In this document: piece after piece, positions 1,932-25,698 of the stretch | Numbering within the stretch: the first letter of the stretch is position 1 | How the letters are laid out: every line of letters starts with the position of its first letter | Assembly (NCBI GenBank): GCA_045644145.1 | Contig: JAZRGK010000058.1 | Location: 557 to 64,556 of the forward strand | Length of the DNA stretch: 64,000 bases | Direction: 5' to 3' | Source: Candidatus Flemingiibacterium sp. | GTDB lineage: Bacteria; Bacillota; Clostridia; Oscillospirales; CAG-272 | Program-made: the position numbers and the translations under genes | The notes under the pieces: generated by a model | Seen by the model: only the letters and a program-made list of their open reading frames with translations | What the model was told of the DNA's origin: nothing | Database searches by the model: none

Positions 1932-2175
1932 GATCGTCCTCCTCACATAGAGAAACGGTGACCGCATCTCCGAGTTCGCCCTCGGCTATGCAGTCACCGT
2001 TTTGCTTCATTTTTTCGGCTGTTTTGAAAGTCTGACGGACCAGTTCCATCTCGAGCCACGTTTGTACGTCCTCTGTGTGCGGATCAATGCTGGACATAAT
2101 TGTTTTTGCTCCGACGGCGGAGAGAATGGAGTATTTGTCCCCGTAGTAGAGCTCCTCGATAGTGTATTTTGCCAT
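1918..2175 (-). CDS. Small hypothetical protein
   Basis: RBS AAGGAGG before ATG 2175; overlaps the next gene as in an operon. Confidence 0.6.
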   Translation of the reverse strand: MAKYTIEELYYGDKYSILSAVGAKTIMSSIDPHTEDVQTWLEMELVRQTFKTAEKMKQNGDCIAEGELGDAVTVSLCEEDDHEHT

Positions 2176-2424
2176 TTGTGCTGCCTCCTTTTTTGTTGGT
2201 AGCACAAGGATATCACAGAATGAGGAAAATGTCCAGAGAGAATAGCGAAGAAAAAATAATATATCTACTTTGTCACAATGGGCACTACTTTCATGGCTTA
2301 GTCAATTCGATATTTATTTCAAAAAATAATGTATCTATACATAAATATCATCTGTGGCGAGGGTGCAACCAGCAAAATCGGTTGCACCCTCTTTTAATTA
2401 TTTTGTAATGATAATCACTCTGCC

Positions 2425-5400
2425 TTATTTCATTACATTTTCGCAGAATCTTCTGAGATATGCAGCAAGTTCAGCACGGCTTGCGCCCTTCGTGAGATTG
2501 CTGATATCCGAACCAATACCGTCAAACATACCATTGAGGTCTGCCCAAAGGACATTGTTTTCTGCCCACTCGCTGTTGGTGTAGGCATCATCAGCGTTTC
2601 CATTTACATTTTCGCTCAACTTCTTATAAACAGCATAGCGATTAAGAATTGCCGTAACCTGCTCATGGGTCAGATCATTGGTGGCACCAAATATACCGTC
2701 GCCATATCCATTGACAATACCATTAGCGGCTGCCCAGTTAACTGCGTCTGTATACCATTCGCCACTTGGGATATCTACAAAGTTAACAATACTGTCTACT
2801 ATGGGACTTCCTTCCAATCTCCACAGAACGGTCACAAGCATAGCACGATTGACAATCTCGGTTGTCGAGAAACTGTCGTCGCTCGTACCGATCATAAGAC
2901 CGGTTTCGTAAGCATACTCAATATCCTCATAGAACCAATCGTCATCATCGACATCACCGAAAGGATTCTCCCATGCGAGCTCTTTAAAGAGCGCTGTAAT
3001 AGCATGTGCTTCCTTTACGTTCTCAAAAGTATACTCGGAAACTGCACCAACGCTCTCGCCATCTACAACAACGTCGGCGATAGCATAGCCTTCATCGGGA
3101 GTTATTGAGTGTGTAATGTTATTACCATACTTCACTTCAGAAGTTCCATCGGGAGTTATTACTCCTCCATTGTTGGCAGTTGCGGTTATCTCGAATCTTT
3201 GATTACGCAGTTGTATAAGAAGCCAATATATATTAGTTTCACGATCGTCTGATAAATCATCTTTTTTCCAATGAGCATAGATAGTTGTGTCGGAGATGAA
3301 AACTGTAGAGGTTGTGATTTGGGTTCCAGTTACAGGATCGGTGTACCAACCGTCGAAAATGTAGCCATCGCGTGTAGCAATAGGGAGTGATGCCAATTTA
3401 CCATCAGACTTTGTTGAAAGCGAATTTATACTAACAGTACCTCCATTAGGTTCGAAAGTGATGGTATGTTCTGTATAATTATCTTTGGAATCTTCTATAA
3501 TTGCGAACAGGCAGAAATGATCTACTTCAAAGACTATCATACCATTATAAATCATTACCTCAACAAATACCCAATCCCCATGTTGATCTTGTTTATACAC
3601 CATTATAGATGACTGTGAGTATCCTTCTGGTACCGGGATATAAACCGTAACCGGTTTGTCCGGCTGCGCTTCCTGTCCGTTACGAACTAATGATATATCA
3701 TATAGTGTGTAGTTGTCATTTTCGTCGATATCTAAACCGTTTGCCGTATTTGAGTAATCGACTATTCTATATACTTGTAGTATTGTATCTGTGGGGAACT
3801 CAACTTCTGATTTGACTGTAATACCATCTTTAGAGGTGATTTCGCTCATTCCCCTATCTTCAATATAAGGAGTAAATACTGCCCATGCAATTTCATTGGT
3901 GGAATTATTTGCTAAATGCATTGTCTGCATGGCAAAATTCAGCATCTTCTGTACATAGAAAATTGCGGATAATGCTGCTCCTGCAGGACCGCCTCCTTTT
4001 TGCAACAAGCCTTGAACCGTTGAAAATGCATAACCGATTCCTGCATCTTTTAAGATATCTTCAAAATTAACGTCAATGGAATCGAAGAGCATATTAATAT
4101 TATCAGTCGCGATTCCGAATATTGTTGAAACACTTCCTTGAGCAATCGTAGTAGCATACTCTTTGAAGAAATCTTCATGTAATGTTGCTAATGTGCTTGT
4201 ACCATATTCAGACGATAGTACAGCCCATATTGTTTCTCTGCTAATGTAGTCGAAGGTGTCGGTATCAAATTTTACTGTACTGTCAATTAGTGAAGTGCCT
4301 GTCAAGAAATAATCTATCAAATTTACATACAGACACGCAGGAGAAAGAACGCAGCTATTAGTTACCACAACATATCCGTCAAACGGAACCTCGACACTTA
4401 TTTCTGTCTTTTTACTTGCAGAAACACCTCTAAATGAAAAACTATCACCATTCCAAAGATCAACGATCATGTCTTTTCCTCCATATACTACTGATTTCAA
4501 AGAGGATGGATCGCTGAATTTCTTAATGGTTTTTATATCAATAAGTTCTCCTTTTTCGTTGTAAACTTCAACAACTCCAGGTGTATAAGTTTCGTTATAT
4601 ACAGAAAAATCAAATGTGTATGTACCATAACTATTATACTTATAAGTAAAATCAGTTACATACATTCCGTTCACATATGCATTGTAGAAATCTTTATCTA
4701 TTACAATATCATACTCATACGTCGGAATATTATCAGCTCTTAAAGATTGGTACTTATCTTCGGCGATGTGTAATGTCACATTGATTGGCGCGGATGTAAT
4801 ATCATCAGAAATAGTTATTGTCACTACGCCGGGTTTATCCGCAACGAAAACGCACTCGGCAAAATCATCATATTCAATATGTTTTTTCAAACTTATCGTT
4901 TCATTGTCGCTGATCTGTATTACCAATCCTTCAGGTTTAGTCCAGTGCAAGTAATCATCTTCTGTTTCAGTACAATCATAAATAAAGAATCTTATTTCAT
5001 CTCCAACAAAATATGATTTGCCAGTGTTGTTGATCTCAACTGATAAATATTTGTTATCCGATGATAAAGACACAAGTGTATTGTCGTAAAGAACATAATC
5101 CTTAGAATAAAGGATTGATTGCTTGATTGTATTAATCAATTCGGTATCGGGATACACATTATAACCGGTATCATCAATATATACTATTGAATTAATCTCG
5201 TCATAATCTGTTATAACTCCACTTCCTTCAATCACATGAATAACCTTAAAAATCTGCTCACCAACACAGTATATACGAACCTGATCGCCTATCCAACTGC
5301 CGATCTGATCGCTCGGGAAGCTGCTTCCCGTGACATCGCTGACATAATAGCTGCCGGACGGGAGTGTGCTACCTTCAATAACTGGAGCAAATTGATCTGT

Positions 5401-6708
5401 ATCCACAACCTTAGTTGCAGGATCGTAACCTTCAAGTGTACATACAGTACCGGGAATAATTTTTGCTTCGGAGACTTCGTTGCTGTCATTGAGGTTATAT
5501 GCAATATAATAATAATCACCAAGATAGTTTGTGGGTAACAAAACTGATTCTTGCTCACAGGTATGAGCAACGTTATATGTAAATCCGTCGATTGTTACGG
5601 TTTCCATCAAGTTTTTGCCGAAACCGGTAGTAGGATCGGTTATGTATTTCTGCGTGGAGCCGTTGTATTTGCCAAAACGGGTGTAGGCCGTGTCAGCGGG
5701 AATAGAAGAATCCTCATCCAATGCCATAAAAGGAATGTGGTGTTCTGTAGCATAAGTTTCAACTGTAGAGCCAGTATAGCCGTAAAGTTCTAAGTTAGCG
5801 TGACAGTTAGAGAATACATCTGTACTTGTGCCAAATTTCACATCTATGGAATATACCATTACTTTTATGAGAGTATCACAATGGTTAAACGCACCGCCAT
5901 CGATGCTTTTTACACTATTAGGGATAGTTATGCTTGAAAGGGCAGTACATGACTGAAACGTAGCAACGCCAATGCTTTTTACTCCATCAGGAATGGTTAC
6001 ACTCTTAATATTAGTAGCTCCATCAAATGCAAATCTATTAATACTGATTACACCATTAGGAATCATATACATTTTTCTTGTATTACCTATGGGGTACCGT
6101 ATAAGTGTAGTTTTATCTTTGTTAAACAGTACACCGTATTCGTCACTTGAGTATATTTTATTGTTTATATCTACGGTAATTTTTGTAAGGTTGTCGCAGT
6201 GAGAAAATGCCCCCTCACCAATGCTTATTATACTGTTTGGGATAATTATGCTAGCAAGATCTCTACAGTAGGAAAATGCTACCTCACCAATGCTTGTTAT
6301 GCTATCTGGAATCATTACGTTTGTAAGAGCATAACAAAACGAAAATGCACCGTCGCCAATGCTAGTTACACTATTGGGTATGGAAATGCTCACAAGACTG
6401 CAATCGTAGAATGCATAGTTGCCAATATTTGTGACACCGTCCTCAATTATAACAGATTTTATGCTGTCGCAGTAAATATTCCACGGTGCAGTAGAATAAA
6501 ATGTGATAGAATCATAATAATAATCAGCCATCGCACCATTACCAGAGATAGTCAACGTCCCGTTTTCAGTGAATTTCCATGTCAGATTACTTCCATCGCC
6601 CTCGCCACCACAATAACCGCTTGCAACAATATCAGCGGCAGATGCAGATAATGGCAGCAATGACATCACCATGCAACAAATCAAAATGAAACTAATAATT
6701 TTTTTCAT
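2425..6708 (-). CDS. Secreted BspA-type leucine-rich-repeat surface protein with InlB B-repeat/Flg_new domain and C-terminal SLH domains
   Basis: Signal peptide; IPNSVTSIGDGAF repeats; ITFEPNGG...RDGYIFDGWYTD; SLH motifs (FGDVDDDDWFY, NRAMLVTVLWR, WAAANGIVNGY). Confidence 0.9.
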   Translation of the reverse strand: MKKIISFILICCMVMSLLPLSASAADIVASGYCGGEGDGSNLTWKFTENGTLTISGNGAMADYYYDSITFYSTAPWNIYCDSIKSVIIEDGVTNIGNYAFYDCSLVSISIPNSVTSIGDGAFSFCYALTNVMIPDSITSIGEVAFSYCRDLASIIIPNSIISIGEGAFSHCDNLTKITVDINNKIYSSDEYGVLFNKDKTTLIRYPIGNTRKMYMIPNGVISINRFAFDGATNIKSVTIPDGVKSIGVATFQSCTALSSITIPNSVKSIDGGAFNHCDTLIKVMVYSIDVKFGTSTDVFSNCHANLELYGYTGSTVETYATEHHIPFMALDEDSSIPADTAYTRFGKYNGSTQKYITDPTTGFGKNLMETVTIDGFTYNVAHTCEQESVLLPTNYLGDYYYIAYNLNDSNEVSEAKIIPGTVCTLEGYDPATKVVDTDQFAPVIEGSTLPSGSYYVSDVTGSSFPSDQIGSWIGDQVRIYCVGEQIFKVIHVIEGSGVITDYDEINSIVYIDDTGYNVYPDTELINTIKQSILYSKDYVLYDNTLVSLSSDNKYLSVEINNTGKSYFVGDEIRFFIYDCTETEDDYLHWTKPEGLVIQISDNETISLKKHIEYDDFAECVFVADKPGVVTITISDDITSAPINVTLHIAEDKYQSLRADNIPTYEYDIVIDKDFYNAYVNGMYVTDFTYKYNSYGTYTFDFSVYNETYTPGVVEVYNEKGELIDIKTIKKFSDPSSLKSVVYGGKDMIVDLWNGDSFSFRGVSASKKTEISVEVPFDGYVVVTNSCVLSPACLYVNLIDYFLTGTSLIDSTVKFDTDTFDYISRETIWAVLSSEYGTSTLATLHEDFFKEYATTIAQGSVSTIFGIATDNINMLFDSIDVNFEDILKDAGIGYAFSTVQGLLQKGGGPAGAALSAIFYVQKMLNFAMQTMHLANNSTNEIAWAVFTPYIEDRGMSEITSKDGITVKSEVEFPTDTILQVYRIVDYSNTANGLDIDENDNYTLYDISLVRNGQEAQPDKPVTVYIPVPEGYSQSSIMVYKQDQHGDWVFVEVMIYNGMIVFEVDHFCLFAIIEDSKDNYTEHTITFEPNGGTVSINSLSTKSDGKLASLPIATRDGYIFDGWYTDPVTGTQITTSTVFISDTTIYAHWKKDDLSDDRETNIYWLLIQLRNQRFEITATANNGGVITPDGTSEVKYGNNITHSITPDEGYAIADVVVDGESVGAVSEYTFENVKEAHAITALFKELAWENPFGDVDDDDWFYEDIEYAYETGLMIGTSDDSFSTTEIVNRAMLVTVLWRLEGSPIVDSIVNFVDIPSGEWYTDAVNWAAANGIVNGYGDGIFGATNDLTHEQVTAILNRYAVYKKLSENVNGNADDAYTNSEWAENNVLWADLNGMFDGIGSDISNLTKGASRAELAAYLRRFCENVMK

Positions 6709-6773
6709 AAATTAACCTCCAAAATAAATGTTTATAACTCAACAATTTACAATTGCAATTTAACCCGCTTCAA

Positions 6774-7916
6774 TTATTCTTTTATGCCTTTATCGGCATC
6801 AATGCGTTCACAAATACACTTGGTATGCTTGCAAACGCCCTGGGGACACCGATGCGGACAATACAATTTTTTAAGTATCGTAGTTGTTTCTTTTTTCTTT
6901 TCTGATTCTTTCGATTTAACAACAACGCCTGAACGTGGGCACATACCGCCTTCGCGTATCATATGCCTTATGTACATTTGCGAAAGTTCGCTTTCAAGTA
7001 ATGACTTGTATCCATTGAGAACATTTTTCTTGAACAGCTCCTTGTAGGCTTTTTCGTTTACCGGAGCACCATTTTCTCTTAATTTTCTGCCATATGTAGT
7101 AATGGTTAACATAGCTTTCACCAAAACCTTTTCCGGTACGTCATTCTTAACATTGATAGACAATCCAACGACCGAGCCTGTACGCCCATATTCCTGATCC
7201 TTTCCGGAAGGGATGTAGTACCTCCCTTCTTTAAGTTTATCATTGAAGAATATATAGTTGTTTTGGTCAAGCAAGAAATAGAAGGACTCTCTGCTAGTCA
7301 AGAAGTCATGCACTTTGTAATTCATGGAAGAACCATCTCGACTAGTGATAAGTCTCCACTTTTCTACTTCCTTTTTATCTGTGGGCAAATTTCCGTCAAA
7401 ATCTTCATCCGGATAGCAATACACTAAATCAACGGTCACCTCATCGTCATCTAATCCCGGCGTTGTAGCAAGTATTGCTTCTTTCAGCTCTAACAAAATA
7501 GTACGTATTTGCTCATGGACATCGTATACAAGCACATTTTCATAGTAGTCCAACGGATGCCATATAGGAATGCTTCCATATGTGATCTGCAAGACATGCC
7601 GTGTTTTATATGCATTTGCACGCTGTTCTACTTTCAGCATAGCAGACGAAAGTTTCTCGGACAGTTCAATTCTTTTATACTTTCGGTAAGTAACACGAGA
7701 ACAACAAAATAATATTATTTTTAGTACTAACGAAACAACCCAAATATAACCCATAATAGTTAAAAATCTATTACGGTTAATTATTGGCCATCCGAAAAAA
7801 TCATTCGTCGCTAAAAAAGCTGATGAAATAACAAATGCTAATTCAACAACAAAAGATATCGTCGGATATAAAACTTTCATTTTGCATTTAATCCATTTTT
7901 CGAAATGCTCTTTCAT
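6774..7916 (-). CDS. Hypothetical membrane protein (two N-terminal TM helices, soluble C-terminus)
   Basis: Long AT-rich ORF; RBS AAGGAG before ATG 7916; two hydrophobic stretches. Confidence 0.75.
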   Translation of the reverse strand: MKEHFEKWIKCKMKVLYPTISFVVELAFVISSAFLATNDFFGWPIINRNRFLTIMGYIWVVSLVLKIILFCCSRVTYRKYKRIELSEKLSSAMLKVEQRANAYKTRHVLQITYGSIPIWHPLDYYENVLVYDVHEQIRTILLELKEAILATTPGLDDDEVTVDLVYCYPDEDFDGNLPTDKKEVEKWRLITSRDGSSMNYKVHDFLTSRESFYFLLDQNNYIFFNDKLKEGRYYIPSGKDQEYGRTGSVVGLSINVKNDVPEKVLVKAMLTITTYGRKLRENGAPVNEKAYKELFKKNVLNGYKSLLESELSQMYIRHMIREGGMCPRSGVVVKSKESEKKKETTTILKKLYCPHRCPQGVCKHTKCICERIDADKGIKE

Positions 7917-7968
7917 TTTATACACTCCTTTTCCAATTAGATAAGCATAGCAGTGTGGTAGCATACCA

Positions 7969-8126
7969 ATGGAATTAAAGGTAGACCTTTAATTCCATAA
8001 AAAGATTGACAAAGCTATGCGTTAGTGATAAAATATTATATGTATAATTATAACAAATTCACGTTGTTGTGGTGGTCATGGATTAACTGTTTACAGGTGA
8101 AATTAAAGGTCTACCTTTATGCATTT
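7969..8126. repeat. Pair of inverted palindromic sites flanking a promoter (candidate inversion sites)
   Basis: ATGGAATTAAAGGT-AG-ACCTTTAATTCCAT (7969-7998) and GTGAAATTAAAGGT-CT-ACCTTTAT (8097-8120). Confidence 0.75.
8006..8034 (+). promoter_or_regulatory. Near-consensus SigA promoter inside the candidate invertible segment
   Basis: TTGACA-N17-TAAAAT with TG extension; no sense gene downstream in this orientation. Confidence 0.65.
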
Positions 8127-8153
8127 TTGTCCAATTGAACAAATCAAACATTT

Positions 8154-8759
8154 TCACGAAGCGTTTTCTTTATCATTTGCTATCCATTTGCGAAACAATG
8201 TGTGTGAAACGCCAAGTTCAATGGCCGCTTGTCTACCTGTGAGAACACCTTTTTGCCACGCGCTCTTAACAGCATCATAATTATCTGGTCGTTCTGCGGC
8301 CTTTCTGCCGAGATGCACACCGTTTGCTCGTGCATTTTCAATCCCCTCACGCTGACGCTGTTTGATGAATTCACGTTCAGTCTGTGCCACATAACTGAGA
8401 AGCTGAAGAACAATATCGGCAATCAATGTTCCTGTCAAATCACGCCCACTGCGTGTATCGAGCAACGGCATATCAAGTACCACAATGTCTGCCCGCTTTT
8501 CTTTAGTTATAATACGCCACTGTTCCAGTATTTCATTGTAATCACGTCCAAGTCGGTCAATGCTCTTGATAACGAGAGTATCGCCTGGCTTTATTTTTTT
8601 GATGAGCCGTTTATATCCTGGACGTTCAAAATCCTTGCCGGACTGTTTATCGCATATCATGCTGGCTGGCGGAACACCGAATTCCTCCATTGCTCGCACT
8701 TGCCGTTCCTCGTTCTGATCACGGGATGATACCCGGATATATCCATATATTTTTGTCAT
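8154..8759 (-). CDS. Small serine recombinase (resolvase/invertase family)
   Basis: YGYIRVSSRDQN catalytic motif, SIDRLGR, C-terminal HTH. Confidence 0.95.
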   Translation of the reverse strand: MTKIYGYIRVSSRDQNEERQVRAMEEFGVPPASMICDKQSGKDFERPGYKRLIKKIKPGDTLVIKSIDRLGRDYNEILEQWRIITKEKRADIVVLDMPLLDTRSGRDLTGTLIADIVLQLLSYVAQTEREFIKQRQREGIENARANGVHLGRKAAERPDNYDAVKSAWQKGVLTGRQAAIELGVSHTLFRKWIANDKENAS

Positions 8760-8869
8760 TCCGATTCCTCCATTACAGTATTTTCTGCTGCCTTTCTAAA
8801 GCAACTACATATATTATTTTACCTGTATATTGAAAAGAATCCGTGACCACCACAAAAATCATAACAATA

Positions 8870-8990
8870 CATCACAATATAGTGATGCATCACTATATTG
8901 TATCACAAAATCATTACATAGTGATGAATCACTAACATTCTTTTTGTCTATGATGTATCATATATATAGTGATAAATCATTAACAACGAT
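8870..8990. promoter_or_regulatory. Array of ATCA-N7-9-TGAT palindromes (operators or res subsites)
   Basis: Perfect 28-bp palindrome 8874-8901; further copies 8910-8925 and 8957-8973; lies between divergent recombinase and XRE genes. Confidence 0.65.
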
Positions 8991-9008
8991 TAAGGATGTG
9001 GATATACA

Positions 9009-9251
9009 TTGAATACTCAGCAAGCAGTTGCGAACCGAATACGTGAGCTGTGCAAGGAGCGTGGAATAACGCCTAACGGTATCAGTTTAATATCCGGCGT
9101 TCCGCAAGCTACAGTAAAGAGCATTTTGAATGGCGAAAGCAAAAATCCGGGCATTGTGAACATAAAGAAACTTTGTGATGGATTCGAGATTACACTCGGT
9201 GAGTTTTTCAGCACGCCCGAATTCGATGGATTAGAGCAAGAATTGCAGTAA
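9009..9251 (+). CDS. XRE-family HTH regulator
   Basis: RIRELCKERGITPNGISLISGVPQATVKSILNGESKNPG...LGEFF. Confidence 0.9.
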   Translation: MNTQQAVANRIRELCKERGITPNGISLISGVPQATVKSILNGESKNPGIVNIKKLCDGFEITLGEFFSTPEFDGLEQELQ

Positions 9252-9378
9252 TGAAAAAACATCCATTTGTGGTAGGGCGACATCGCCAAGCCTAACACAA
9301 ATGGATGTATCACTTTTTAAGCACAAATATTAATGTATAATATGCTGTGTAAAGAACATTAAAATAAAGGAAGATTAT

Positions 9379-10989
9379 ATGGATATTTTCACAACGCGTG
9401 AAATCGCGATTTTTATGTATGGCATACTTTTGCTTACATATATTCTCGTTCGCAATAAAGGCAAAAAGATTTTTATGCCAGTTATTAAAGCTGCTTGCCA
9501 CAAGAAACTTATCATTCCATTTTGCTTTCTTTTATTGTTAGCTATAGGTTTTGTTTGGGTGTGTACATATTCCTCTATTTGGGATTGGATATATGTAAAG
9601 GATATTGCTTTTTGGACTCTGTTTGTAGGTGTACCAGTGTGCTTTAATGCAACAAGCAGGCAATTAGAAGAACATTATTTTAAAAACATTTTAGTTGACA
9701 ATCTTAAATTTACCGCTTTAGTAGAATTCATTACAGGTACATTTACCCTCTCCTTTATAGGGGAATTGATATTACAACCGATCTTGGTTGTATTAATGAT
9801 TATGCAATCCTCGCTGGTAAAGAAAACAGAAGCCACTAAAAAGGTGGTTGATTGTATTGTTGGAATCGCAGGACTCATAATAATTGGTCTTACCGTAAAA
9901 TCGATAGTAGATTCCATCGGCGAGGTTTATTTTGTAGACATTTTGGTTGGTTTGCTTTTGCCAATAATATTATCGATTATATATTTACCTGTTGCTTATC
10001 TTTTTGCAATATATGCTAAGTACGAAATTCTATTTATGCGTATGGGATTTAAAGAGCCCGATGATAAAAAATTAAGACATAAACACCAACTTCAAGTATT
10101 TCTATGCTGCAAACTCTCTTATAAAAAAGTATGTAAATTTCTCAACGAGTACGTGCAAAAAATGTATATTAGAATGAGTACAACTGAATTCGAAACTATA
10201 ATTGATGAATTTAGGGGTACTACCCAGCATACATATTATGCGGTCATTCGGCACAATAGGAAGTACTATATAAGCAGAGATTTCAGCGAAGAAAGTTTTA
10301 AGTTTAACGAATACATTATACACAAAGGCGGATTATTTAGTTCACGAAATAAATCTCTTAGAAGAGAAATCGCTTTACAAATACAAGAAAAAACACCTTT
10401 TAAAAATACAGAATTTAATGACTCTAATATCCATTGTCCCGTTTCATTACGCAAGATGTTTTTATTCAAAAAAGGCGAGTTTTTTAAGCGTACAAATGTA
10501 GCACTATTTATAAGCAATTCATTCGAAAGAAGAAAAGAATCTGTTGATATACCTTTCGTCAAAGATGTTAAGGATCAATGTGACAAGAATGCAATAGCTT
10601 TAATGCGTGCAATGAAGAGAAGTGACTATTTCCCATCTTTTATTCCGACTCTATTCGGGTTTGCTGTATTCTTACTTTTATCACTTATCCAAACAGGTAT
10701 TAATACCAATTTGGACCTTGCTGCACTTATTTTCACAATTCTTTGTCAATTGGGAGTCTTTTTTAATAATCAAGATCCGCTACTTAGGATAAGAATAAAA
10801 CAACGAACAATATACTTATACAAAGATATTGTGTTTAAAGGCATACAGGAAGTACTTATGATTTATATTTCCTTGTTAATTAGCTATAGTCTCAGGTCTC
10901 TAAACATTAGTAGCGAATGGTTATCCAAATTTAGTATTGCAATTCTTTTTCTGTGCATGATAATAGACATCTGGGAAAAAGATCAATAG
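9379..10989 (+). CDS. Hypothetical multi-pass membrane protein
   Basis: 536-aa AT-rich ORF with many hydrophobic segments at both ends. Confidence 0.75.
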   Translation: MDIFTTREIAIFMYGILLLTYILVRNKGKKIFMPVIKAACHKKLIIPFCFLLLLAIGFVWVCTYSSIWDWIYVKDIAFWTLFVGVPVCFNATSRQLEEHYFKNILVDNLKFTALVEFITGTFTLSFIGELILQPILVVLMIMQSSLVKKTEATKKVVDCIVGIAGLIIIGLTVKSIVDSIGEVYFVDILVGLLLPIILSIIYLPVAYLFAIYAKYEILFMRMGFKEPDDKKLRHKHQLQVFLCCKLSYKKVCKFLNEYVQKMYIRMSTTEFETIIDEFRGTTQHTYYAVIRHNRKYYISRDFSEESFKFNEYIIHKGGLFSSRNKSLRREIALQIQEKTPFKNTEFNDSNIHCPVSLRKMFLFKKGEFFKRTNVALFISNSFERRKESVDIPFVKDVKDQCDKNAIALMRAMKRSDYFPSFIPTLFGFAVFLLLSLIQTGINTNLDLAALIFTILCQLGVFFNNQDPLLRIRIKQRTIYLYKDIVFKGIQEVLMIYISLLISYSLRSLNISSEWLSKFSIAILFLCMIIDIWEKDQ

Positions 10990-11031
10990 ACAAAAATACC
11001 GGTCATCAATGATGATGGCCGGTATTTTTGT
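10990..11031. terminator. Bidirectional intrinsic terminator
   Basis: ACAAAAATACCGGTCATC...GATGGCCGGTATTTTTGT between convergent genes. Confidence 0.8.
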
Positions 11032-11105: not shown

Positions 11106-12767
11106 TCATTCTGCAGCAATATTTTCTGTATATCGTAAAATAATCGTTGCAACCTGCGCTCTGGTACAATCATCCTTCGGGGACAGAGTGGTATCACTTG
11201 TACCCTTTATAAGTCCCTTTGCATATGCCCACTGCACTGCAGGCTTCGCATAATCGCTAACGTCTGCGGCGTCTGTATATGCGTCAAGTGCCGTACCGTC
11301 TGACGGCGTCAAGCCCTTGTACTTTAGATAGCGGTACAGTATAGTCACCATATCCTGGCGGCTAATACTGTCGTTTGTACCAAAAGTGTCCGCGGTATAG
11401 CCGTTGACGATTCCGTTTTCACTCGCCCATGCAATTGCATCGGTGTACCACGTATCAGCCGCAACATCATTGAATGTCACGCCTACACTTGCAGCAGGCT
11501 TACCGTCAAGTCTGTGAAGAACCGTTACGAGCATCGCTCGTGTCATCGGCATATCGGGTGAAAACTCCGTAGCACTTGTTCCTGCGAAAAGTCCCATTTC
11601 GGTAATCTTTTCAACCGCATCAAAATACCAGCTACCGCGAGCAACGTCGGTAAAGCGTGGTGCTTTAGGCTTTTGTCTAAAGAAAAACTCAATATGAGTT
11701 TTCGAAATTACGCTTGCGATAGTAACCGTCGTATCATCGGGATACGCCACTCCGTTTACTACTACCTTTTCAACCTCATATCCTTCATCAGGAGCTGCAA
11801 GCACTGTGACGGAAGTGCCGTAACGAACAAGCTGTTTTTCATAGCCCTCGACGATCTTACCGTTCTCTCCTGCGTTTGCAGTGACCTCAATCAGATTCTT
11901 TTCGCCTGCAATAAGTCCACCGATGACTCCGGAAATGTCACTTTGCTTTTTACCGTAGAACTTGGCATCCTCGTATGCGTACAGGGCTGAATTAAGCGCC
12001 TTTTCAGCCTCTAAAAATTCATCGGGAAGCACAGCCTGCGAAAGCGCCTTTTCAGCCGCCTTTATAGCCGCGTCAAGAGCATCGTAAGCCGTCTGCGATA
12101 CGGTAAATGCAGGATATATCAGCTCAGACGTAGGATTCATCACAGCCGCATCGAGCTGTGCCTTGGCTTTTTCTACACTTCCGGCAAGCGTTTCTTCATT
12201 CGAAGTTGTCTCTCCTGTGCCTATGCTAATCTCAAGTGCCGAGGGCGCCGATACGATAGGTCTTGCATTGGCAGCCTTATCCGTCAACACCATATCCGAG
12301 AGTGACAAAGTCGATACTCCGTTATTGAGCGTTTTAAATGTGAATTTCGCCAAAACAAAATCCGTGCCAACATTGACTCCGACCAGCTCCGAGCCCGAAG
12401 TCCCGCAAAGATAGCTGAACGTTACTCTACCGGCTGATGCATTGTCGCTAAAGCTCGTAGAAGCAAACTTCTCCGAAGCCTCAACATTTGTCAACTGTAA
12501 GAGGAATGAATTGTAGTGCAGTATGCCGTTGAATGCATATACCGGCGCTGACACCTCACTATTCGCATTTCCCATCGCATCCCTTGTGGAAACGGCAACA
12601 GTTACTGTTACCGTCTCCCCAACAGCGTACGTTTCGCCTTTTTTCGGTGCCGTAGCCTCAAGGTTCAAAGCATAGCTTACATTACTGTCCTCGGATGCTG
12701 ACGTCTGCAAAGCAAGCACCGAAGAGAGCATAAAAATGCAAAGCATTAAGCTAACTATTTTTTTCAT
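11106..12767 (-). CDS. Cohesin-domain SLH anchoring protein
   Basis: Signal peptide; cohesin-like VGETVTVTV...GILHYNSFLLQL...VLAKFTFKTL; FIVAR-like helix; three SLH domains. Confidence 0.8.
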   Translation of the reverse strand: MKKIVSLMLCIFMLSSVLALQTSASEDSNVSYALNLEATAPKKGETYAVGETVTVTVAVSTRDAMGNANSEVSAPVYAFNGILHYNSFLLQLTNVEASEKFASTSFSDNASAGRVTFSYLCGTSGSELVGVNVGTDFVLAKFTFKTLNNGVSTLSLSDMVLTDKAANARPIVSAPSALEISIGTGETTSNEETLAGSVEKAKAQLDAAVMNPTSELIYPAFTVSQTAYDALDAAIKAAEKALSQAVLPDEFLEAEKALNSALYAYEDAKFYGKKQSDISGVIGGLIAGEKNLIEVTANAGENGKIVEGYEKQLVRYGTSVTVLAAPDEGYEVEKVVVNGVAYPDDTTVTIASVISKTHIEFFFRQKPKAPRFTDVARGSWYFDAVEKITEMGLFAGTSATEFSPDMPMTRAMLVTVLHRLDGKPAASVGVTFNDVAADTWYTDAIAWASENGIVNGYTADTFGTNDSISRQDMVTILYRYLKYKGLTPSDGTALDAYTDAADVSDYAKPAVQWAYAKGLIKGTSDTTLSPKDDCTRAQVATIILRYTENIAAE

Positions 12768-12776
12768 ACCGTCTCC

Positions 12777-15700
12777 TTATTTATTGATTCTGTAAATAAG
12801 CATGAGCTGTGCATCAATGACGTTGATAATACCGTCGCCGTTCACATCACCGCGGATGAATGCGTCATCGCCAAGACCATACTTGTTATCTCCGTGGAAT
12901 GTGTCAACGGCAAGATTCATATCGGTCACATTAACGTATCCGTTGCCGTCATAGTCACCTTTTAAAAGAGCTGTAGCCTTATCGTTTTCATCGACACTCT
13001 GTATGATCGTAAGACCGCCGAGAACGTCTTCCACATCAACATCGGATGCAAAGGATGCAACGTAGGTGTTATCTCCTACATAGTAGAACTTTGTTTCTTT
13101 TCCGCCTACGTTGGTAGTCACCGATGAGATATCGTCCTTGTCGATGATAAGCGCGATCTTCGAGTAGCTTGCAAAGTCCGTTCTGACGGCTTCAACGCTT
13201 ACCTCTACACCGTCATCGCCCGAGCCCACGCTAACCTTGCGCTCCGTAACCTCGATAACGATGACGTCGGTCAGAGTGCTCTTGACAACCTTACCGTCAA
13301 CCTCAAAGGATGCAATCTCATAAATAACGCTTATCGCGGTTTCTCCGGGAACAAGTGCAGTCAGAACGCCCTCGTTGAAGCTGATAATATTCTGCTCGTA
13401 AAGAATCTTCCACGAAACATCATCACCCTCAAGCGCAACACGGTTTGAATTGTATATGCCGAACGCGCTGAGATTTACTGTTGTTCCGACGGGAATTGTT
13501 ATCTTCTTCACATCGTTAACAATTGCAGTATCCTTGTCTGCTGTAAGCTCAACCGAACCGAAATCGGAAAGCGAAGGAGTAACAAGATGTATGAGAAGTG
13601 TGGTCTTGTTTCCTGCTTTATCTGCAGCAACCAGATTAAGCTCACTCTTACTTCTGTCTGCTGTCACCTTACGGCTGACAGTGAACGAGCCGTCCTTGTT
13701 TAAGGTAATACCGTCAGTTGTTCCGTCAAGTGTCAGAACAGTGTCGGGATCGGTAACACCGCTGAAGCTTATGATACCGTCATCGCCAACGACAACATTC
13801 TGCATGCTTATTGCGGTATATTCGTCCTCCTTCTCGATATTCACCGAAACATCCTGACCCACCTTCAAGAGAGGAGCTGTGGTATCCACAACAAATGCGA
13901 ACGCAGCTTCCTCGTGAATACGGCTGTCGGTGGTATCATACTCGGGAGTTACAGCATAGAAGTCGATTACATGGTCGCCCTCGATAAGCGGAACGCTTAC
14001 TGTATGTACCTTCTTGCATTCAGTTGAGTAAGACTTTGTGAGTGTATCTGCCACGATGAAGAAGTATACATCTCTGTCGAAGGTATATGTTGCCTCAAAT
14101 GTGTCAACACACTGTGCAGACTTGGAGTCATCGATGTTGCTTTCGACGCTGAGAAGCACAGGAGTCTGCTTTTCGGGCATTACAAGTGCATTGGAATATA
14201 CAGATTCGTTGCTGTAATACATCTTGTCACCGTCGTATTTTACGGTGTCCACCGCAACATAGTAGGTGTTGCCGACAACAAGTCCTTGGTTCTCACCGAA
14301 GTAGTAAACATCGTTCTCATATTCGCCGGTCTGTGTGTTATAGAACTTCTCTCCAACCTCCTGCTCGAATATGCCGTTTTCTATAACGTTCATGTTTTCG
14401 TCGAGAATGCGTATGAGATATGCGTTGTATTCCACGTCGTTTTCACGCTCGATTTCAATACGGAGATCGCCGTCGCCGCCGTAGGATATGGTCACATCGT
14501 CAACATTCTCGGGAAGCTTATCGTTTTCGAAGGTGAACGCGGTATCATTCATCGCAAGTGACATACCGCCGACATCCTGTGAAAGCATGCATACAACGTA
14601 GTAATCTCCGTTGAGAAGTGTGTCGGGAATATCCGCCACAACGCTTCCGTCACGCATATTTTCAAGCTCAAAGCGTCCGAGTGAGATAAGACCGGTATTC
14701 GGGTCAGCTACACTCTGACGGAGACTCGAAAGTGCATTGGGGTTTTCTGTGATGTAAACATCAAGTGCACCGGGAACATCACTTTCACCGTCAACATCGT
14801 AGTTTATGGTAAGCTGATACGGATTGGATGCATCATAGCTGTATGTTACACCTGCAAGATCGGGAAGATCGTCAACGCCGTTTACCGCGAAATCGGAAAC
14901 AGTTACGCCGTCAGTAGCAATGGAGAGTGTCCATTCACCCTCTTCGAGAAGTTCCTTATCGGTTACAGTGATGTAAATATACTTCTGTGCGCCCTCACCG
15001 CGGTCATTGATAAGGAAGTTACCTCCACCCTGTCCGTCATCGGGAATCATCTCAATCTGTTTTCCGGAAGGAGTGAGCAGAATGATTTCCTCAGCCGTGG
15101 GGAACTTAACTCCGTCAAAAGGCACCTCAAGAAGGAGTGCATCCTCTGCGGTGGGATCGAATACCTTCTTTATAAGTATATCCCCTGCTCTGCCGCTGTC
15201 AACCTTTGTTGAAGTAAGACGGCGTAAGTTTGTACCGTAAAGCGCTGTACACTGAACATATTTGCCGTTTTCATCGTAGTAAGAGGTGTCAAATGCCTTT
15301 ATAGCATCTCCTCTGCCGCTAAGATCGATTCCCTGTCCTATTTCCCAGTCTCCGCCCCAATAATAGATGAAACCGAACTTGATTCCGATAATCTTAAGGT
15401 TAGCACCGATAAAGTCGGTCGAGCCTGCAGCTTCAACGCCGCCAAGCTCCATGCCACCTATCAGCGGCACAGATTCGGGAATACCGAGTGTTGCATAATA
15501 GTATACGTAGAAGTAATCCTTACGGATAGTTACGGTCATACCGCCCTTCATAAGTCCCTGAAGCAGTGTACCGTTTCCGTAAATATTGATGTTGAAGTCG
15601 GGCTTCCAGCGTATATTCGCGCCTGCCTCCAGCTTCAGTATTTTTCCGTCATCATCGTTGTTGAGGGTTACCTCACCGGTAAGTGAAACGTGCTCAAGGT

Positions 15701-18700
15701 TAAATTCAACCTCAAAGACACCGTTAAGGATCTCCACAAAGCTCAGGTCAATACGTCCGTAGATCGTCGGGAAATAGAGTCCTTCATCCTCGTCCTTGTC
15801 TTTAAGCGTTTCGGCAAGGTCGGAAATACCGAATCCGCCGCCTGTGATAAATACACCGGGGATGCCAAAGAACGGAACCTTTACGGCCTCAACACTGAGA
15901 TATGCCTTAACTTCATCGGGGTAGTATCTTTCTACACCCTTTCTTGTAATCTGCTTGAGCATGAGAGTTACCTCGCACTCAAAAAGATTCTTCACCTCAA
16001 CTCCGAAATCAAAACCGAATTCCTTGTCTAAGGTATTGATGTAAACTGTAGCCTCAACGCCAAACTTATTCTTGAATACGCCTCCAAGAACATCCGCTGG
16101 GAGTTTTACCTCAAGTGAGGTATTGATTCCGACGAAACCGGTTTCGTATTCTCCGGTTTCCTCGTTATAGGATTTGTGACCGAAAATTATGTCTTCGATC
16201 TCTGCGGTTATTTCGCCGTCATCGGGTTCATCTTCAATCTTACCAAGGCTGTTTACATACTGTCCAAGCTTGGAGTCGGAAGTAGTAACTGTAAGCTGGG
16301 GGGGATTATCTCCTGAAGGAAGTGTGAGTCCGACTTTGTTTCCACTGCCGGAGGTGTTACCACCGGAAGTGTTTCCGCTGCCGGAAGTGTTTCCGCTGCC
16401 GGAGGTGTTTCCACTGCCGGAGGTGTTTCCACCGGAGGTGTTACCACCGGATGTGTTTCCACCGGATGTGTTTCCGCCGGAAGTGTTTCCGCTGCCGGAT
16501 GTGTTACCACCGGATGTGTTACCACCGGATGTGTTACCACCGGATGTGTTACCACCGGATGTGTTGCCGCCGGAAGTGTTGCCACCGGAGGTGTTACCAC
16601 CGGAGGTGTTACCACCGGAGGTGTTACCACCGGATGTGTTGCCGCCGGAAGTGTTGCCACCGGATGTGTTACCACTATCGGGTTTGGTCGAGTCACCGGG
16701 TTTGGTCGAGTCACCGGGCTTGCTTGCATCAGCCTGCTTTTTAGCCTTTATCGGAAGAGTAGCCTTACCGCCGAAGCTGATGCCGTAGAGATCTTCATCT
16801 CTTGTAAGCTGACCGTATTTAAGGTCGATAAGAATTCCGCCGATATACTGAATTATCGAACCACCGATACCGAGTTGAAGTATAAATGCCTCGTCTTCAT
16901 CTTCTGCCTCAAGAGTAGACATCACGCCGTCCTTACCCTCAAGACTCCAGCCGTTATGCCAAACGGTTATCGAACCTATAACTTTGATTCTGCCGTTACC
17001 TGCGATAGTAGCAATATTATCGTTCTGGGTACTCCACCAGTCGCCCTCGATTGACATAGTAAGCGGCTCGGCACCGTCATATACAAGAAGGTTATTGATA
17101 GTTACATCGCCATCAGTGGTATTAGCCTGATAGAATAGCTTGCCGTTTTCATTCATATAGCGGATCTTACCTCTAACGACAGCCATTATTTCGCTTGTTT
17201 CAGGGTCAAAAGTAATAAAGTCATGTTTAAGACCGCGTCCGGTGAATTCGCCTTCCTCAAACTGCTTTAGCTGTTCCTCGCTGATAAATGAAACAAAATC
17301 GTAAGCCGGATAGTTATCTTTCTCAAAACGAACCATTGCCACAAGGCCGTAGCTCTGTGCACGGTAGCGCTCATCATCAGACACCGAGAGAACCTCTGCC
17401 GCAATAACCTTGCTTGTAAGCTCATCCTTTAACTGCTTATCAGTTAAGTGCAGTTCGATCTTGTAATCACCCACCGAGAGTGACTCATCGGTGGAGAAGG
17501 TCATCGTCTTATAGGTTTCGTTCGGGAATGCTATGGTGCTCTTGTCAATTCTCACCTTGTGGAAGCCCTTGATGAGATAGAGTTCCCATCCGGTAGAAGC
17601 TTTGAGAGCTTTGAGAGCCTCCATATCGCCGGAAACGGTAATATTCTTTTCGCCATCGGTATATACCTTTTGGGGCGAAACAGACGTCATCTTAACGTCG
17701 GGAAGCACGCCGTCAACACCGGGGACAAGTACATTCTTCTGCGACGAATATGTTGCCTGCGTCCATTCGATTTCAGACGTGTATTCAGTAGCAGATACGT
17801 TTACTGTAATATTTTTTGACGTAAGGTTTGCCTCGGGTGAAACCACAACGGTTCTCTTTATGGTTTTAACAGTTCCCTTCGGTATACCCATATTAAGGAT
17901 TTCCACGCCGACATATTCTCCGTAAGTTAACTTCTCCTCGGATAAGCCGGAATCCTTGAATGTAAGTCCCTCTTCAAGGAAAATGTCAACCTGTGCGGTA
18001 ATAATATCGACAGCTCCGTCAACGCTGTTGTCAAGCGTTATGATAAGCTCGATCTCGCCGCCGTTCTGATAACCGTCGCCCTTACTGTTAAGCTTTACAG
18101 AAGGAACGTTAACGCTCATGCCGAGATGCTCTTTACTGAGGTCAGCGGTAAAGTTACCGATGCCGTAGAGCATTTCCATTGTTCTCGATCCGCCTGCCGC
18201 CACCTCTTCTTCAGACCAGTAGATCGCGGTTGCCGTGTCGGGAACTCTATGTGCATTTGAGTAGTTGGAGAAATCGCAGCTCGCATCGGGAGTGTAGTCA
18301 TATCTCGTGTTTGCGAGATTTGCCCAGTGACCCACGATGACCTTATCGGGAGTGGTGTCACTCTCACCGCTCCAGCCCTTGAGCATTGCATACGCCATCT
18401 TCTTGGTGTTTGCAAGAGAATCCACATATGTAAGCTGCTGGGGCATATTTCCTGCCATATCGGAATATTCGGTTTCCACAATGGTAGGCGAGAAAATCTC
18501 GCTGTTGATAACGTAAGGCGCATCAACCTTGGAGTCGAGGGCGTTATCAAGCAAAAGGCGGATACCGACGTTGCCGGGAGTATCGTTCATGTTTACAACT
18601 GTGTAACCGATGCCTATATTTCCGGCAAGATCACTGTCTTCTATCTCGGAGATGATAACATTCTGCGTAATGAGATAACCCTTAACGCCCCACGAAACGC

Positions 18701-19082
18701 TCATCAGTCTGCCGCCATTTGAAATAACGGGGGTATAAAGATCGGTTTCGATGCCGAAATAGCTGTAATCCTGTCCGAATATGTAATCCTTGCCGTCAAT
18801 ACGTACCGTTGTATAGGACGTACCGTTGCTTCTTGCCGCCGCCTCGTTATAAAGAAGCGGAATATTGTTGTCAAATGTCTTCTGCGGATGACCCTCTTTG
18901 GTTTCCACAGAGAACGCTCCAGTGTCCGCATCGTATGCGAAGCGGACATAATCGTTTGCGATCTTATATACGCTTCCGCTTATCAGCGACTCGATACCGA
19001 GAGCCGCCGCACTTTCGGCGAGAGTCGGTACCATCATAAAGATGACAAGCAGAATTGATATAATTCTTTTAGAAAGCTTCAT
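12777..19082 (-). CDS. 2101-aa secreted protein with GGNTS linker and C-terminal dockerin
   Basis: Signal peptide; duplicated Ca-binding loops GDYDGNGYVNVTD and GDVNGDGIINVID at the C-terminus. Confidence 0.85.
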   Translation of the reverse strand: MKLSKRIISILLVIFMMVPTLAESAAALGIESLISGSVYKIANDYVRFAYDADTGAFSVETKEGHPQKTFDNNIPLLYNEAAARSNGTSYTTVRIDGKDYIFGQDYSYFGIETDLYTPVISNGGRLMSVSWGVKGYLITQNVIISEIEDSDLAGNIGIGYTVVNMNDTPGNVGIRLLLDNALDSKVDAPYVINSEIFSPTIVETEYSDMAGNMPQQLTYVDSLANTKKMAYAMLKGWSGESDTTPDKVIVGHWANLANTRYDYTPDASCDFSNYSNAHRVPDTATAIYWSEEEVAAGGSRTMEMLYGIGNFTADLSKEHLGMSVNVPSVKLNSKGDGYQNGGEIELIITLDNSVDGAVDIITAQVDIFLEEGLTFKDSGLSEEKLTYGEYVGVEILNMGIPKGTVKTIKRTVVVSPEANLTSKNITVNVSATEYTSEIEWTQATYSSQKNVLVPGVDGVLPDVKMTSVSPQKVYTDGEKNITVSGDMEALKALKASTGWELYLIKGFHKVRIDKSTIAFPNETYKTMTFSTDESLSVGDYKIELHLTDKQLKDELTSKVIAAEVLSVSDDERYRAQSYGLVAMVRFEKDNYPAYDFVSFISEEQLKQFEEGEFTGRGLKHDFITFDPETSEIMAVVRGKIRYMNENGKLFYQANTTDGDVTINNLLVYDGAEPLTMSIEGDWWSTQNDNIATIAGNGRIKVIGSITVWHNGWSLEGKDGVMSTLEAEDEDEAFILQLGIGGSIIQYIGGILIDLKYGQLTRDEDLYGISFGGKATLPIKAKKQADASKPGDSTKPGDSTKPDSGNTSGGNTSGGNTSGGNTSGGNTSGGNTSGGNTSGGNTSGGNTSGGNTSGGNTSGGNTSGSGNTSGGNTSGGNTSGGNTSGGNTSGSGNTSGSGNTSGSGNTSGGNTSGSGNKVGLTLPSGDNPPQLTVTTSDSKLGQYVNSLGKIEDEPDDGEITAEIEDIIFGHKSYNEETGEYETGFVGINTSLEVKLPADVLGGVFKNKFGVEATVYINTLDKEFGFDFGVEVKNLFECEVTLMLKQITRKGVERYYPDEVKAYLSVEAVKVPFFGIPGVFITGGGFGISDLAETLKDKDEDEGLYFPTIYGRIDLSFVEILNGVFEVEFNLEHVSLTGEVTLNNDDDGKILKLEAGANIRWKPDFNINIYGNGTLLQGLMKGGMTVTIRKDYFYVYYYATLGIPESVPLIGGMELGGVEAAGSTDFIGANLKIIGIKFGFIYYWGGDWEIGQGIDLSGRGDAIKAFDTSYYDENGKYVQCTALYGTNLRRLTSTKVDSGRAGDILIKKVFDPTAEDALLLEVPFDGVKFPTAEEIILLTPSGKQIEMIPDDGQGGGNFLINDRGEGAQKYIYITVTDKELLEEGEWTLSIATDGVTVSDFAVNGVDDLPDLAGVTYSYDASNPYQLTINYDVDGESDVPGALDVYITENPNALSSLRQSVADPNTGLISLGRFELENMRDGSVVADIPDTLLNGDYYVVCMLSQDVGGMSLAMNDTAFTFENDKLPENVDDVTISYGGDGDLRIEIERENDVEYNAYLIRILDENMNVIENGIFEQEVGEKFYNTQTGEYENDVYYFGENQGLVVGNTYYVAVDTVKYDGDKMYYSNESVYSNALVMPEKQTPVLLSVESNIDDSKSAQCVDTFEATYTFDRDVYFFIVADTLTKSYSTECKKVHTVSVPLIEGDHVIDFYAVTPEYDTTDSRIHEEAAFAFVVDTTAPLLKVGQDVSVNIEKEDEYTAISMQNVVVGDDGIISFSGVTDPDTVLTLDGTTDGITLNKDGSFTVSRKVTADRSKSELNLVAADKAGNKTTLLIHLVTPSLSDFGSVELTADKDTAIVNDVKKITIPVGTTVNLSAFGIYNSNRVALEGDDVSWKILYEQNIISFNEGVLTALVPGETAISVIYEIASFEVDGKVVKSTLTDVIVIEVTERKVSVGSGDDGVEVSVEAVRTDFASYSKIALIIDKDDISSVTTNVGGKETKFYYVGDNTYVASFASDVDVEDVLGGLTIIQSVDENDKATALLKGDYDGNGYVNVTDMNLAVDTFHGDNKYGLGDDAFIRGDVNGDGIINVIDAQLMLIYRINK
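16338..16720 (-). repeat. Intragenic tandem repeat encoding (G/GS)GNTS units plus PGDSTK repeats
   Basis: 15/18-bp periodic GGNGGNAACACNTCC units on the minus strand. Confidence 0.95.
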
Positions 19083-19094
19083 TTGTTACTCCTT

Positions 19095-25697: not shown

Positions 25698-25698
25698 G

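Follow-up and report, generated by a model that had tools for sequence, protein, structure and literature searches.

The window, that is, the whole 64,000-nucleotide stretch of Candidatus Flemingiibacterium sp. DNA analysed here, carries a gene for a small serine recombinase. Two palindromic sites in inverted orientation are located just behind it, with a near-consensus promoter between them. The gene of a 380-aa protein, referred to here as the target gene, follows beyond the outer site. Upstream of the recombinase lie several candidate control elements and a divergent regulator gene. The whole putative device measures about 900 bp in total. Its features and the neighbouring genes are:

2425-6708, minus strand: LRR-SLH surface-protein gene, 65 bp behind the target gene
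6774-7916, minus strand: target gene, encoding a 380-aa protein of no named family; ribosome-binding site (RBS) at 7925-7929
7969-7998: putative distal crossover site, a perfect palindrome with 14-bp arms and the core AG at 7983-7984; family matrix score 17.8
7985-8110: putative invertible segment of 126 bp (128 bp core to core, about 12 helical turns), predicted to be OFF as assembled
8006-8034, plus strand: sigma-A-type promoter TTGACA-17-TAAAAT with a TG extension, matching the consensus at 11/12 positions
8047-8055, minus strand: possible extended -10 TGTTATAAT, facing the downstream gene; strain-specific candidate for a leak in the OFF state
8064-8084, plus strand: inner copy of a duplicated motif, 19/21 identical to the reverse complement of 8838-8858
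about 8098-8125: putative recombinase-proximal crossover site, core CT at 8111-8112, inverted with respect to the distal site
8154-8759, minus strand: small serine recombinase of 201 aa with intact RVSS (Ser10) and DRLGR motifs and a C-terminal helix-turn-helix region
8767-8771, minus strand: recombinase RBS GGAGG, read from the sequence
8816-8821, minus strand: candidate proximal -10 TAAAAT of the recombinase, placed by aligned upstream regions
8832-8858, minus strand: second copy of the duplicated motif, on the upstream side; pairing of its 3' part with the RBS and start codon of the recombinase is predicted (anti-RBS hairpin)
8876-8898, 8915-8937 and 8963-8985: three related palindromic operator-like repeats between the recombinase and HTH genes
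9009-9251, plus strand: divergent Cro/C1-type (XRE) HTH gene of 80 aa (PF13443, PF01381)

The recombinase has a PF00239 domain (105.4 bits against a cut-off of 23.3, residues 4-148), with no second Pfam domain reported. The match to Tn3 resolvase covers residues 3-196 and there is no large recombinase domain. The catalytic motifs were judged by alignment to Sin/Bin3 and gamma-delta resolvase, and the enzyme sequence is without lesion. Its sequence matches among solved structures are Sin/Bin3 (102 bits), gamma-delta (87), Tn3 (75) and Gin (55). A reading of the DNA made earlier from the sequence alone had placed a serine recombinase beside the segment, with Hin/Gin-type invertases as the known model; the serine recombinase is there, and among solved structures it resembles Sin/Bin3 more closely than Gin. 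In an NCBIfam search no model reached its cut-off, the Mpi model NF009949 scoring 52.8 against 272 bits. Six further PF00239 matches exist in the genome, all of them large recombinases or truncated forms of these.

The two palindromic sites, their AG and CT cores, the 19-bp inverted identity and the enclosed 126 bp are all present as the sequence-only reading had described them, with 19 contiguous bases common to both sites in inverted orientation. Without mismatch, the site core occurs at these two places only in the whole 2.09-Mb genome. We searched the assembly, which is 95% complete, for further pairs using a family site matrix. The window pair is the top of 18 matrix-scored pairs (16.5, the next being 10.6) and the sole one with a promoter of at least 9/12 at the offset that is fixed in the family. 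None of the 18 scored pairs in this 95% complete assembly constitutes an orphan promoter-bearing segment for flipping in trans.

The promoter at 8006-8034 ranks first of 14 promoter-like sites in positions 6500-9500, a total that is near the shuffled mean of 11.1. Its -35 box begins 21 bp from the distal core, which is the fixed offset of the family. It faces the recombinase gene from its 3' side, in line with the earlier claim of a near-consensus promoter facing that end, and at 11/12 it is the best match in 3 kb. Judged from its sequence, the segment is predicted to be assembled in the OFF orientation for the 380-aa membrane-protein gene. The minus-strand TGTTATAAT, which had been pointed out at the same positions, is present in the window but missing in the three closest named relatives L001, L002 and L011.

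To place the locus in its family, we collected recombinase relatives in a scan of one genome per species. The scan returned 444, of which the best 80 were kept, and 11 more in viral contigs brought the set to 91 loci. The record titles are gut Clostridia almost throughout. With 444 relatives in one scan and the cassette recombinase in 47/300 genomes of the same family, the locus belongs to a common serine-recombinase cassette. The site matrix was seeded from the two sites of the window and then trained on the same loci that it scored, so it was frozen for a held-out test. An inverted site pair is found just behind the recombinase in 51 of the 91 loci (the best 80 of 444 plus 11) and in 0 upstream control regions. 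At least 200 bp of downstream DNA was available in 75 loci, and 24 of these have no pair at the matrix threshold, which suggests that many family members are decayed or locked. In a further 33 loci, all new and de-duplicated, the frozen matrix finds 19 pairs and 0 upstream. An earlier, unbiased scan for the best inverted repeat gave 19/78 loci at 20/24 or better vs 0/76 controls; the separation was partial and the matrix was used instead. A pattern scan of metagenomes produced two matches, both without a recombinase, which we take as chance.

The cores are identical after reversal in 46/47 distinct pairs, compared to a shuffle mean of 15.7 and a maximum of 28 in 20,000 shuffles, and they are complementary in 19/19 held-out pairs. 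Across the loci the dinucleotides AC, AG, GT, AA, AT, GC and GA are used. Crossover by a serine recombinase requires a matching 2-bp core, which an operator does not. The -35 box begins 20-22 bp from one core across the family, and the core-to-core spacings cluster at about 94, 115, 127, 137 and 148 bp with a best period of 10.66 bp over 66 pairs. The site spacings thus fall whole helical turns apart. The held-out loci give R 0.68 (Rayleigh p 1.6e-4 at 10.6), and when one row per 80% cluster is used, 3 and 0 of 5000 null draws reach the value observed on the 20 clusters; as the loci are related, tests across them overstate significance. Three site-like sequences instead of two are located behind the recombinase in L067 (146-bp segment) and L113, possibly a nested or multi-state switch. 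The proximal core lies 30-60 bp before the recombinase stop in L024, L026, L030, L031, L032, L036, L037, L059, L070, L072, L074, L077 and L080. As the proximal site is inside the 3' end of the gene in these 13 relatives, inversion would alter the enzyme's own C-terminal tail.

Both orientations of the segment are observed among the relatives. Orientation was scored by the promoter at the fixed offset, with OFF facing the recombinase and ON facing away from it. Among 52 loci, the window included, 29 are OFF, 12 are ON and 11 are unclear. The 19 held-out pairs comprise 4 OFF and 0 ON, and in the remaining 15 no clear sigma-A promoter stands at that offset. Descent was examined on a tree of 44 recombinases, made up of the 41 rows with an orientation call and of L007, L017 and L018 with labels given by eye; the 11 unclear rows were excluded. 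On this tree, orientation changes 13 times vs 12.1 for shuffled labels, with 426/500 shuffles as low, and at least 7 of the changes are forced by the starred branches. Orientation therefore does not follow recombinase descent.

The most direct comparison is provided by L060, an isolate genome, and L081. Their left flanks show 2 mismatches over 600 bp and their right flanks 5 over 310 bp. The 92-bp segment between them is 91/92 identical after reversal and 36% identical in the same orientation, while the AG and CT cores are unchanged. The pair is below the matrix threshold and lies outside the 52 loci. Its segment has no strong sigma-A promoter at the usual offset and may use another sigma factor. 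Reversed alignment is also the better one for L024/L037 (96 v 45), L019/L045 (105 v 54), L020/L045 (106 v 52) and L014/L128 (82 v 54), and in L024/L037 the outer arms are kept and the inner arms swapped. The segment of the window itself aligns better in reverse to the ON relatives L003 (68 v 53) and L012 (76 v 54).

Contig ends are concentrated close to the recombinase stop: 16 of the 91 loci end within 200 bp of it, four of them at the stop itself, compared to 0-3 in each of 19 further 200-bp bins downstream. Such an excess is expected where a sample mixes both orientations. One contig (L046:760-1037) crosses the segment and then re-enters the reversed end of the recombinase gene, as would be expected when a mixed population is assembled. 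In 20/36 loci the arms paired within a site in the OFF state are more alike than those paired in the ON state; in 5 loci they are less alike. This likeness may bias the switch, or may merely reflect palindrome repair in the commoner state.

An invertible promoter beside a serine recombinase, the central proposal of the sequence-only reading, is thus upheld by both orientations in relatives, by covarying cores and by a near-identical pair with an exact reversal. We consider it highly probable that the locus is a self-contained promoter switch, in which the 126-bp segment is flipped by the adjoining small serine recombinase.

The region upstream of the recombinase contains several candidate layers of control. 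In the long transcript the recombinase RBS has a predicted unpaired probability of 0.02, compared to 0.80 in the short one from the proximal -10, and this short transcript would lack the anti-RBS. The RBS is less open than the shuffled median in 31/36 loci, and the upstream anti-RBS duplex reaches p<=0.05 in 23/45 loci vs 12/150 genes of the own genome. The anti-RBS partner shifts together with the RBS flank: the pairing is GAATC/GATTC in the window, GAAAC/GTTTC in most loci, GAGCC/GGCTC in L066 and GGTCA/TGACTT in L049. A covarying hairpin is predicted to hide the recombinase RBS.

The inner copy of the duplicated motif ends 26 bp from the proximal core. Locus-matched duplication of the motif scores at least 20 in 9/36 loci and in 0 reverse-strand or flank controls; a de novo matrix search for the motif across the family did not converge. 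The inner copy was also considered as an RNA anti-RBS, and this role was rejected, as a duplex is predicted in trans on the recombinase in 1/36 and in cis on the target in 2/28. Since the inner copy pairs with neither RBS, its likeliest role would be that of a DNA site bound by either the recombinase or a helper, making 8064-8084 a candidate accessory protein site.

The operator-like repeats at 8876-8985 would be bound by the HTH protein. A divergent XRE homologue is found no more than 700 bp away in 20/82 relatives that have that much upstream DNA. The extended -10 region of the segment promoter (8019-8037) is similar to half of these repeats; the XRE protein might bind there too, or the resemblance is merely that of a TG-TATAAT-like motif.

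We propose that recombinase dimers would occupy both sites and synapse, closing a loop of about 12 turns; cleavage at the 2-bp cores would then lead to inversion of the segment in cis. In the ON state the promoter would transcribe the 380-aa target gene, and in the OFF state it would fire antisense into the recombinase gene. The short DNA loop would have to close in helical phase, the spacings being quantised at about 10.6 bp. A DNA-bending protein would probably aid closure, with the duplicated motif acting as an accessory site. Three layers of control would keep flipping rare: the anti-RBS hairpin, the divergent XRE protein and, in the OFF state, antisense transcription. The first and probably the second would limit the supply of enzyme, which would lead to slow stochastic switching. 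Each of these control layers (hairpin, XRE and antisense) is rated below the switch itself.

Two other explanations of the paired sites were weighed. The palindromes could be simple operators, bound by the recombinase, by the XRE protein or by a repressor of the host, with the promoter making antisense RNA against the recombinase. The left site is indeed perfectly palindromic and lies 8 bp from the -35 box, and a regulator gene with operator-like repeats is located nearby. However, operators have no need for complementary central dinucleotides that covary (46/47), and they would not yield exact core-to-core reversals between near-identical loci. The XRE repeats moreover differ in sequence from the sites, and the XRE gene is present in only 20/82 relatives. 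Simple operators, which had been named as the alternative at the outset, fail to explain the complementary covarying cores or the reversed segments; they are disfavoured on these grounds and we regard them as very improbable. The region could also be one res site, with subsites I and II, of a Sin/Tn3-type resolvase that resolves or excises a mobile element together with a distant partner site. The best solved-structure match of the enzyme is Sin/Bin3 (102 bits), Sin needs an accessory site II and a bending protein according to the available text of PMC2764113, and positions 2000-11000 are AT-rich relative to the right flank. Against this, both sites are of the crossover type with matching cores, and the cores are inverted in the window and in 46/47 distinct pairs instead of directly repeated as in res. 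There is no second copy in the 95% complete assembly, and it is the DNA between the sites, not outside them, that differs in orientation among relatives. A res site is accordingly just as hard to credit as operators, and the promoter switch is the preferred reading.

A more serious alternative is that the switch is real in origin, but that the copy in the window is frozen or too OFF-biased to matter. Nine of 24 listed sequencing runs contained 5-18% of the words of the locus, and four were compared as contigs of relatives, not of this strain. Of the 17 joints in these contigs, none of 15 inspected changes strand, although contigs drop rare variants, and the contigs crossing the segment in runs X1, X2 and X3 are collinear with the window, i.e. 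OFF. The nearest full copies are all OFF, namely L011 (97% protein identity) and L002 (88%), and the nearest ON copy is L003 at 81%. Every copy at 88% identity or more that spans the segment is thus OFF, OFF outnumbers ON 29 to 12 across the family, and the greater likeness of the OFF-state arms in 20/36 loci (less in 5) could bias binding. The window contig itself passes through the segment unbroken. On the other side, a consensus assembly displays the majority state only, and the contig of L001 (90%) breaks inside the segment. The window sites score high (16.5 and 17.8), their cores match, the spacing is in phase and the enzyme is without lesion. We regard a frozen copy as rather unlikely, and the copy in the window is probably still active in flipping, given that its sites and enzyme look intact.

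In the inverted orientation, the promoter start would lie about 140 bases ahead of the target gene (7916-6774), which has its own RBS. The start at 7916 had been proposed from the sequence and is confirmed by a Met that is invariant in 22 aligned homologues; a longer ORF from 7964 was rejected, as it would run into the distal site. Predictions for the target protein show two hydrophobic helices at the N terminus, followed by a GAF-like domain and a tail rich in Cys. It has 144 homologues, none of them named, and searches of Pfam and PADLOC gave no family of note, with one weak NCBIfam match far under its cut-off. The structure model has a mean pLDDT of 75. Its middle domain resembles GAF domains (Z 12.2, rmsd 3.4, 164 aligned; Foldseek matches to GAF proteins at E about 5e-4). 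The GAF-like fold together with the hydrophobic helices makes a membrane-anchored sensor the likeliest reading of the modelled protein. The gene is found in 1/400 other genomes of the order, in broken form.

No terminator-like site is listed in the 65-bp gap between the target and LRR-SLH genes, and their co-transcription is possible in the genome of the window. Control of the LRR-SLH gene by the switch had also been suggested. It does not hold as a conserved feature, since L011 has the same target gene without the LRR-SLH gene.

Across the family, a co-oriented gene lies beyond the distal site in 46/52 loci (4 are too short and 2 face the opposite way). Of 45 first downstream ORFs 40 were scanned, and 29 have a Pfam match, to many unrelated kinds of protein. 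The first downstream genes of these 40 relatives include restriction-modification methylases (3), helicases (4), peptide-synthetase or AMP-binding enzymes (4) and surface proteins. This variety of unrelated genes indicates that the cassette is portable. Eco57I-type restriction-modification genes are located behind the switch in L024, L072 and L080, and peptide-synthetase or AMP-binding genes in L005, L006, L025 and L028. In L023 (4765-5361) and L033 (1020-1610) the gene behind the switch encodes a second, weakly scoring Resolvase-domain protein; the switch possibly controls its own helper or inhibitor there.

Hin/hix, Gin/gix, Cin and Pin flip a promoter or a gene segment between two inverted sites, each about 26-28 bp long and asymmetric in its 2-bp core. 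Their segments measure about 1 kb or more and need the Fis enhancer. The cassette shares with them a small serine recombinase and inverted sites with matching asymmetric 2-bp cores (46/47 and 19/19). In contrast, its segments measure 91-164 bp, and Gin matches the enzyme with only 55 bits vs 102 for Sin/Bin3.

Mpi of Bacteroides fragilis, as described in the available parts of PMC10403206, is a serine recombinase acting in trans on 7-13 capsule loci, where it turns short promoter segments, flanked by inverted repeats, to ON or OFF. The mode of switching is alike, whereas here one enzyme lies beside one segment, the Mpi model NF009949 scores 52.8 against its cut-off of 272, and of the 18 pairs scored in the 95% complete assembly a single one bears a promoter, where Mpi has several dispersed targets. 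The proposed switch would work like Hin and Mpi, but by sequence it is a member of neither group. Staphylococcal Sin (PDB 2r0q), with its need for an accessory site and an HU-type bending protein (PMC2764113, text available in part), belongs to the closest solved sequence, Sin/Bin3, and its accessory-site model is borrowed here for the duplicated motif. Sin differs in resolving directly repeated res sites, while the crossover sites of the window face each other 128 bp apart.

The nearest described arrangement is found in a 2026 paper on Flavonifractor, where hin genes are followed by inversions of about 120 bp with a FliA-dependent (flagellar) promoter (PMC13418256, as far as its text is available). 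It shares the invertase gene with a promoter inversion of about 120 bp directly behind it, the gut Clostridia and the comparison of related loci. The FliA promoter drives csrA-tldR there, whereas a sigma-A-type promoter faces unrelated genes here. The likeness is by description, as the available Flavonifractor text gives no site sequence, spacing rule or recombinase control (PMC13418256).

Promoter inversion as a route to phase variation has been mapped well in gut Bacteroidota, and in Clostridia it is mostly tied to tyrosine recombinases, according to the available text of PMC11892184. The Clostridial inverton group 139 and invertase group 35 of that work resemble the cassette as gut-Clostridia invertons with an adjoining recombinase, but group 35 is a tyrosine recombinase family and the enzyme here a serine one; the words "serine" and "resolvase" are absent from the main text of PMC11892184 as available. 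The parts available of PMC11602134 and PMC8493755 are uninformative on the enzyme. In our literature search no account was found of the sigma-A serine cassette, of its site or of its leader hairpin, though supplementary inverton tables, including those of PMC11892184, could list members.

In a broader and more tentative proposal, which we hold to be possible but doubtful, the cassette is a portable, very compact, Fis-independent serine-invertase module of gut Clostridia. It would combine a 9-16-turn loop with autoregulation through an accessory site that has a second copy at the promoter of the enzyme; a conserved anti-RBS hairpin would keep translation of the enzyme shut, and two arm types would give unequal OFF and ON flip rates. 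If so, it would be a main undescribed phase-variation route in these bacteria, placed ahead of restriction-modification, peptide-synthetase, sugar-transfer and surface genes, and would provide a ready-made memory switch for use in Gram-positive anaerobes. Defence, metabolites and the cell surface may all be switched by the cassette. The presumed Fis-free inversion of a 92-164 bp segment by a serine recombinase poses a concrete mechanistic question. Owing to the recognisable site, the fixed promoter offset and the quantised spacing, assemblies alone suffice to predict members, which existing reads can then test.

Several other features of the window surround the locus. Strong hairpins are located at 9259-9308, behind the XRE gene, and at 10990-11031, behind the 536-aa membrane-protein gene at 9379-10989, which has no family match. 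They are followed by an SLH/cohesin-like gene at 11106-12767 and, at 12777-25718, by two very large secreted-looking proteins of 2101 and 2207 aa, with a GNTSG repeat tract near 16200-16780. Near the start of the window, the 311-aa protein at 296-1231 shows a weak sigma-70 ECF match under the cut-off.
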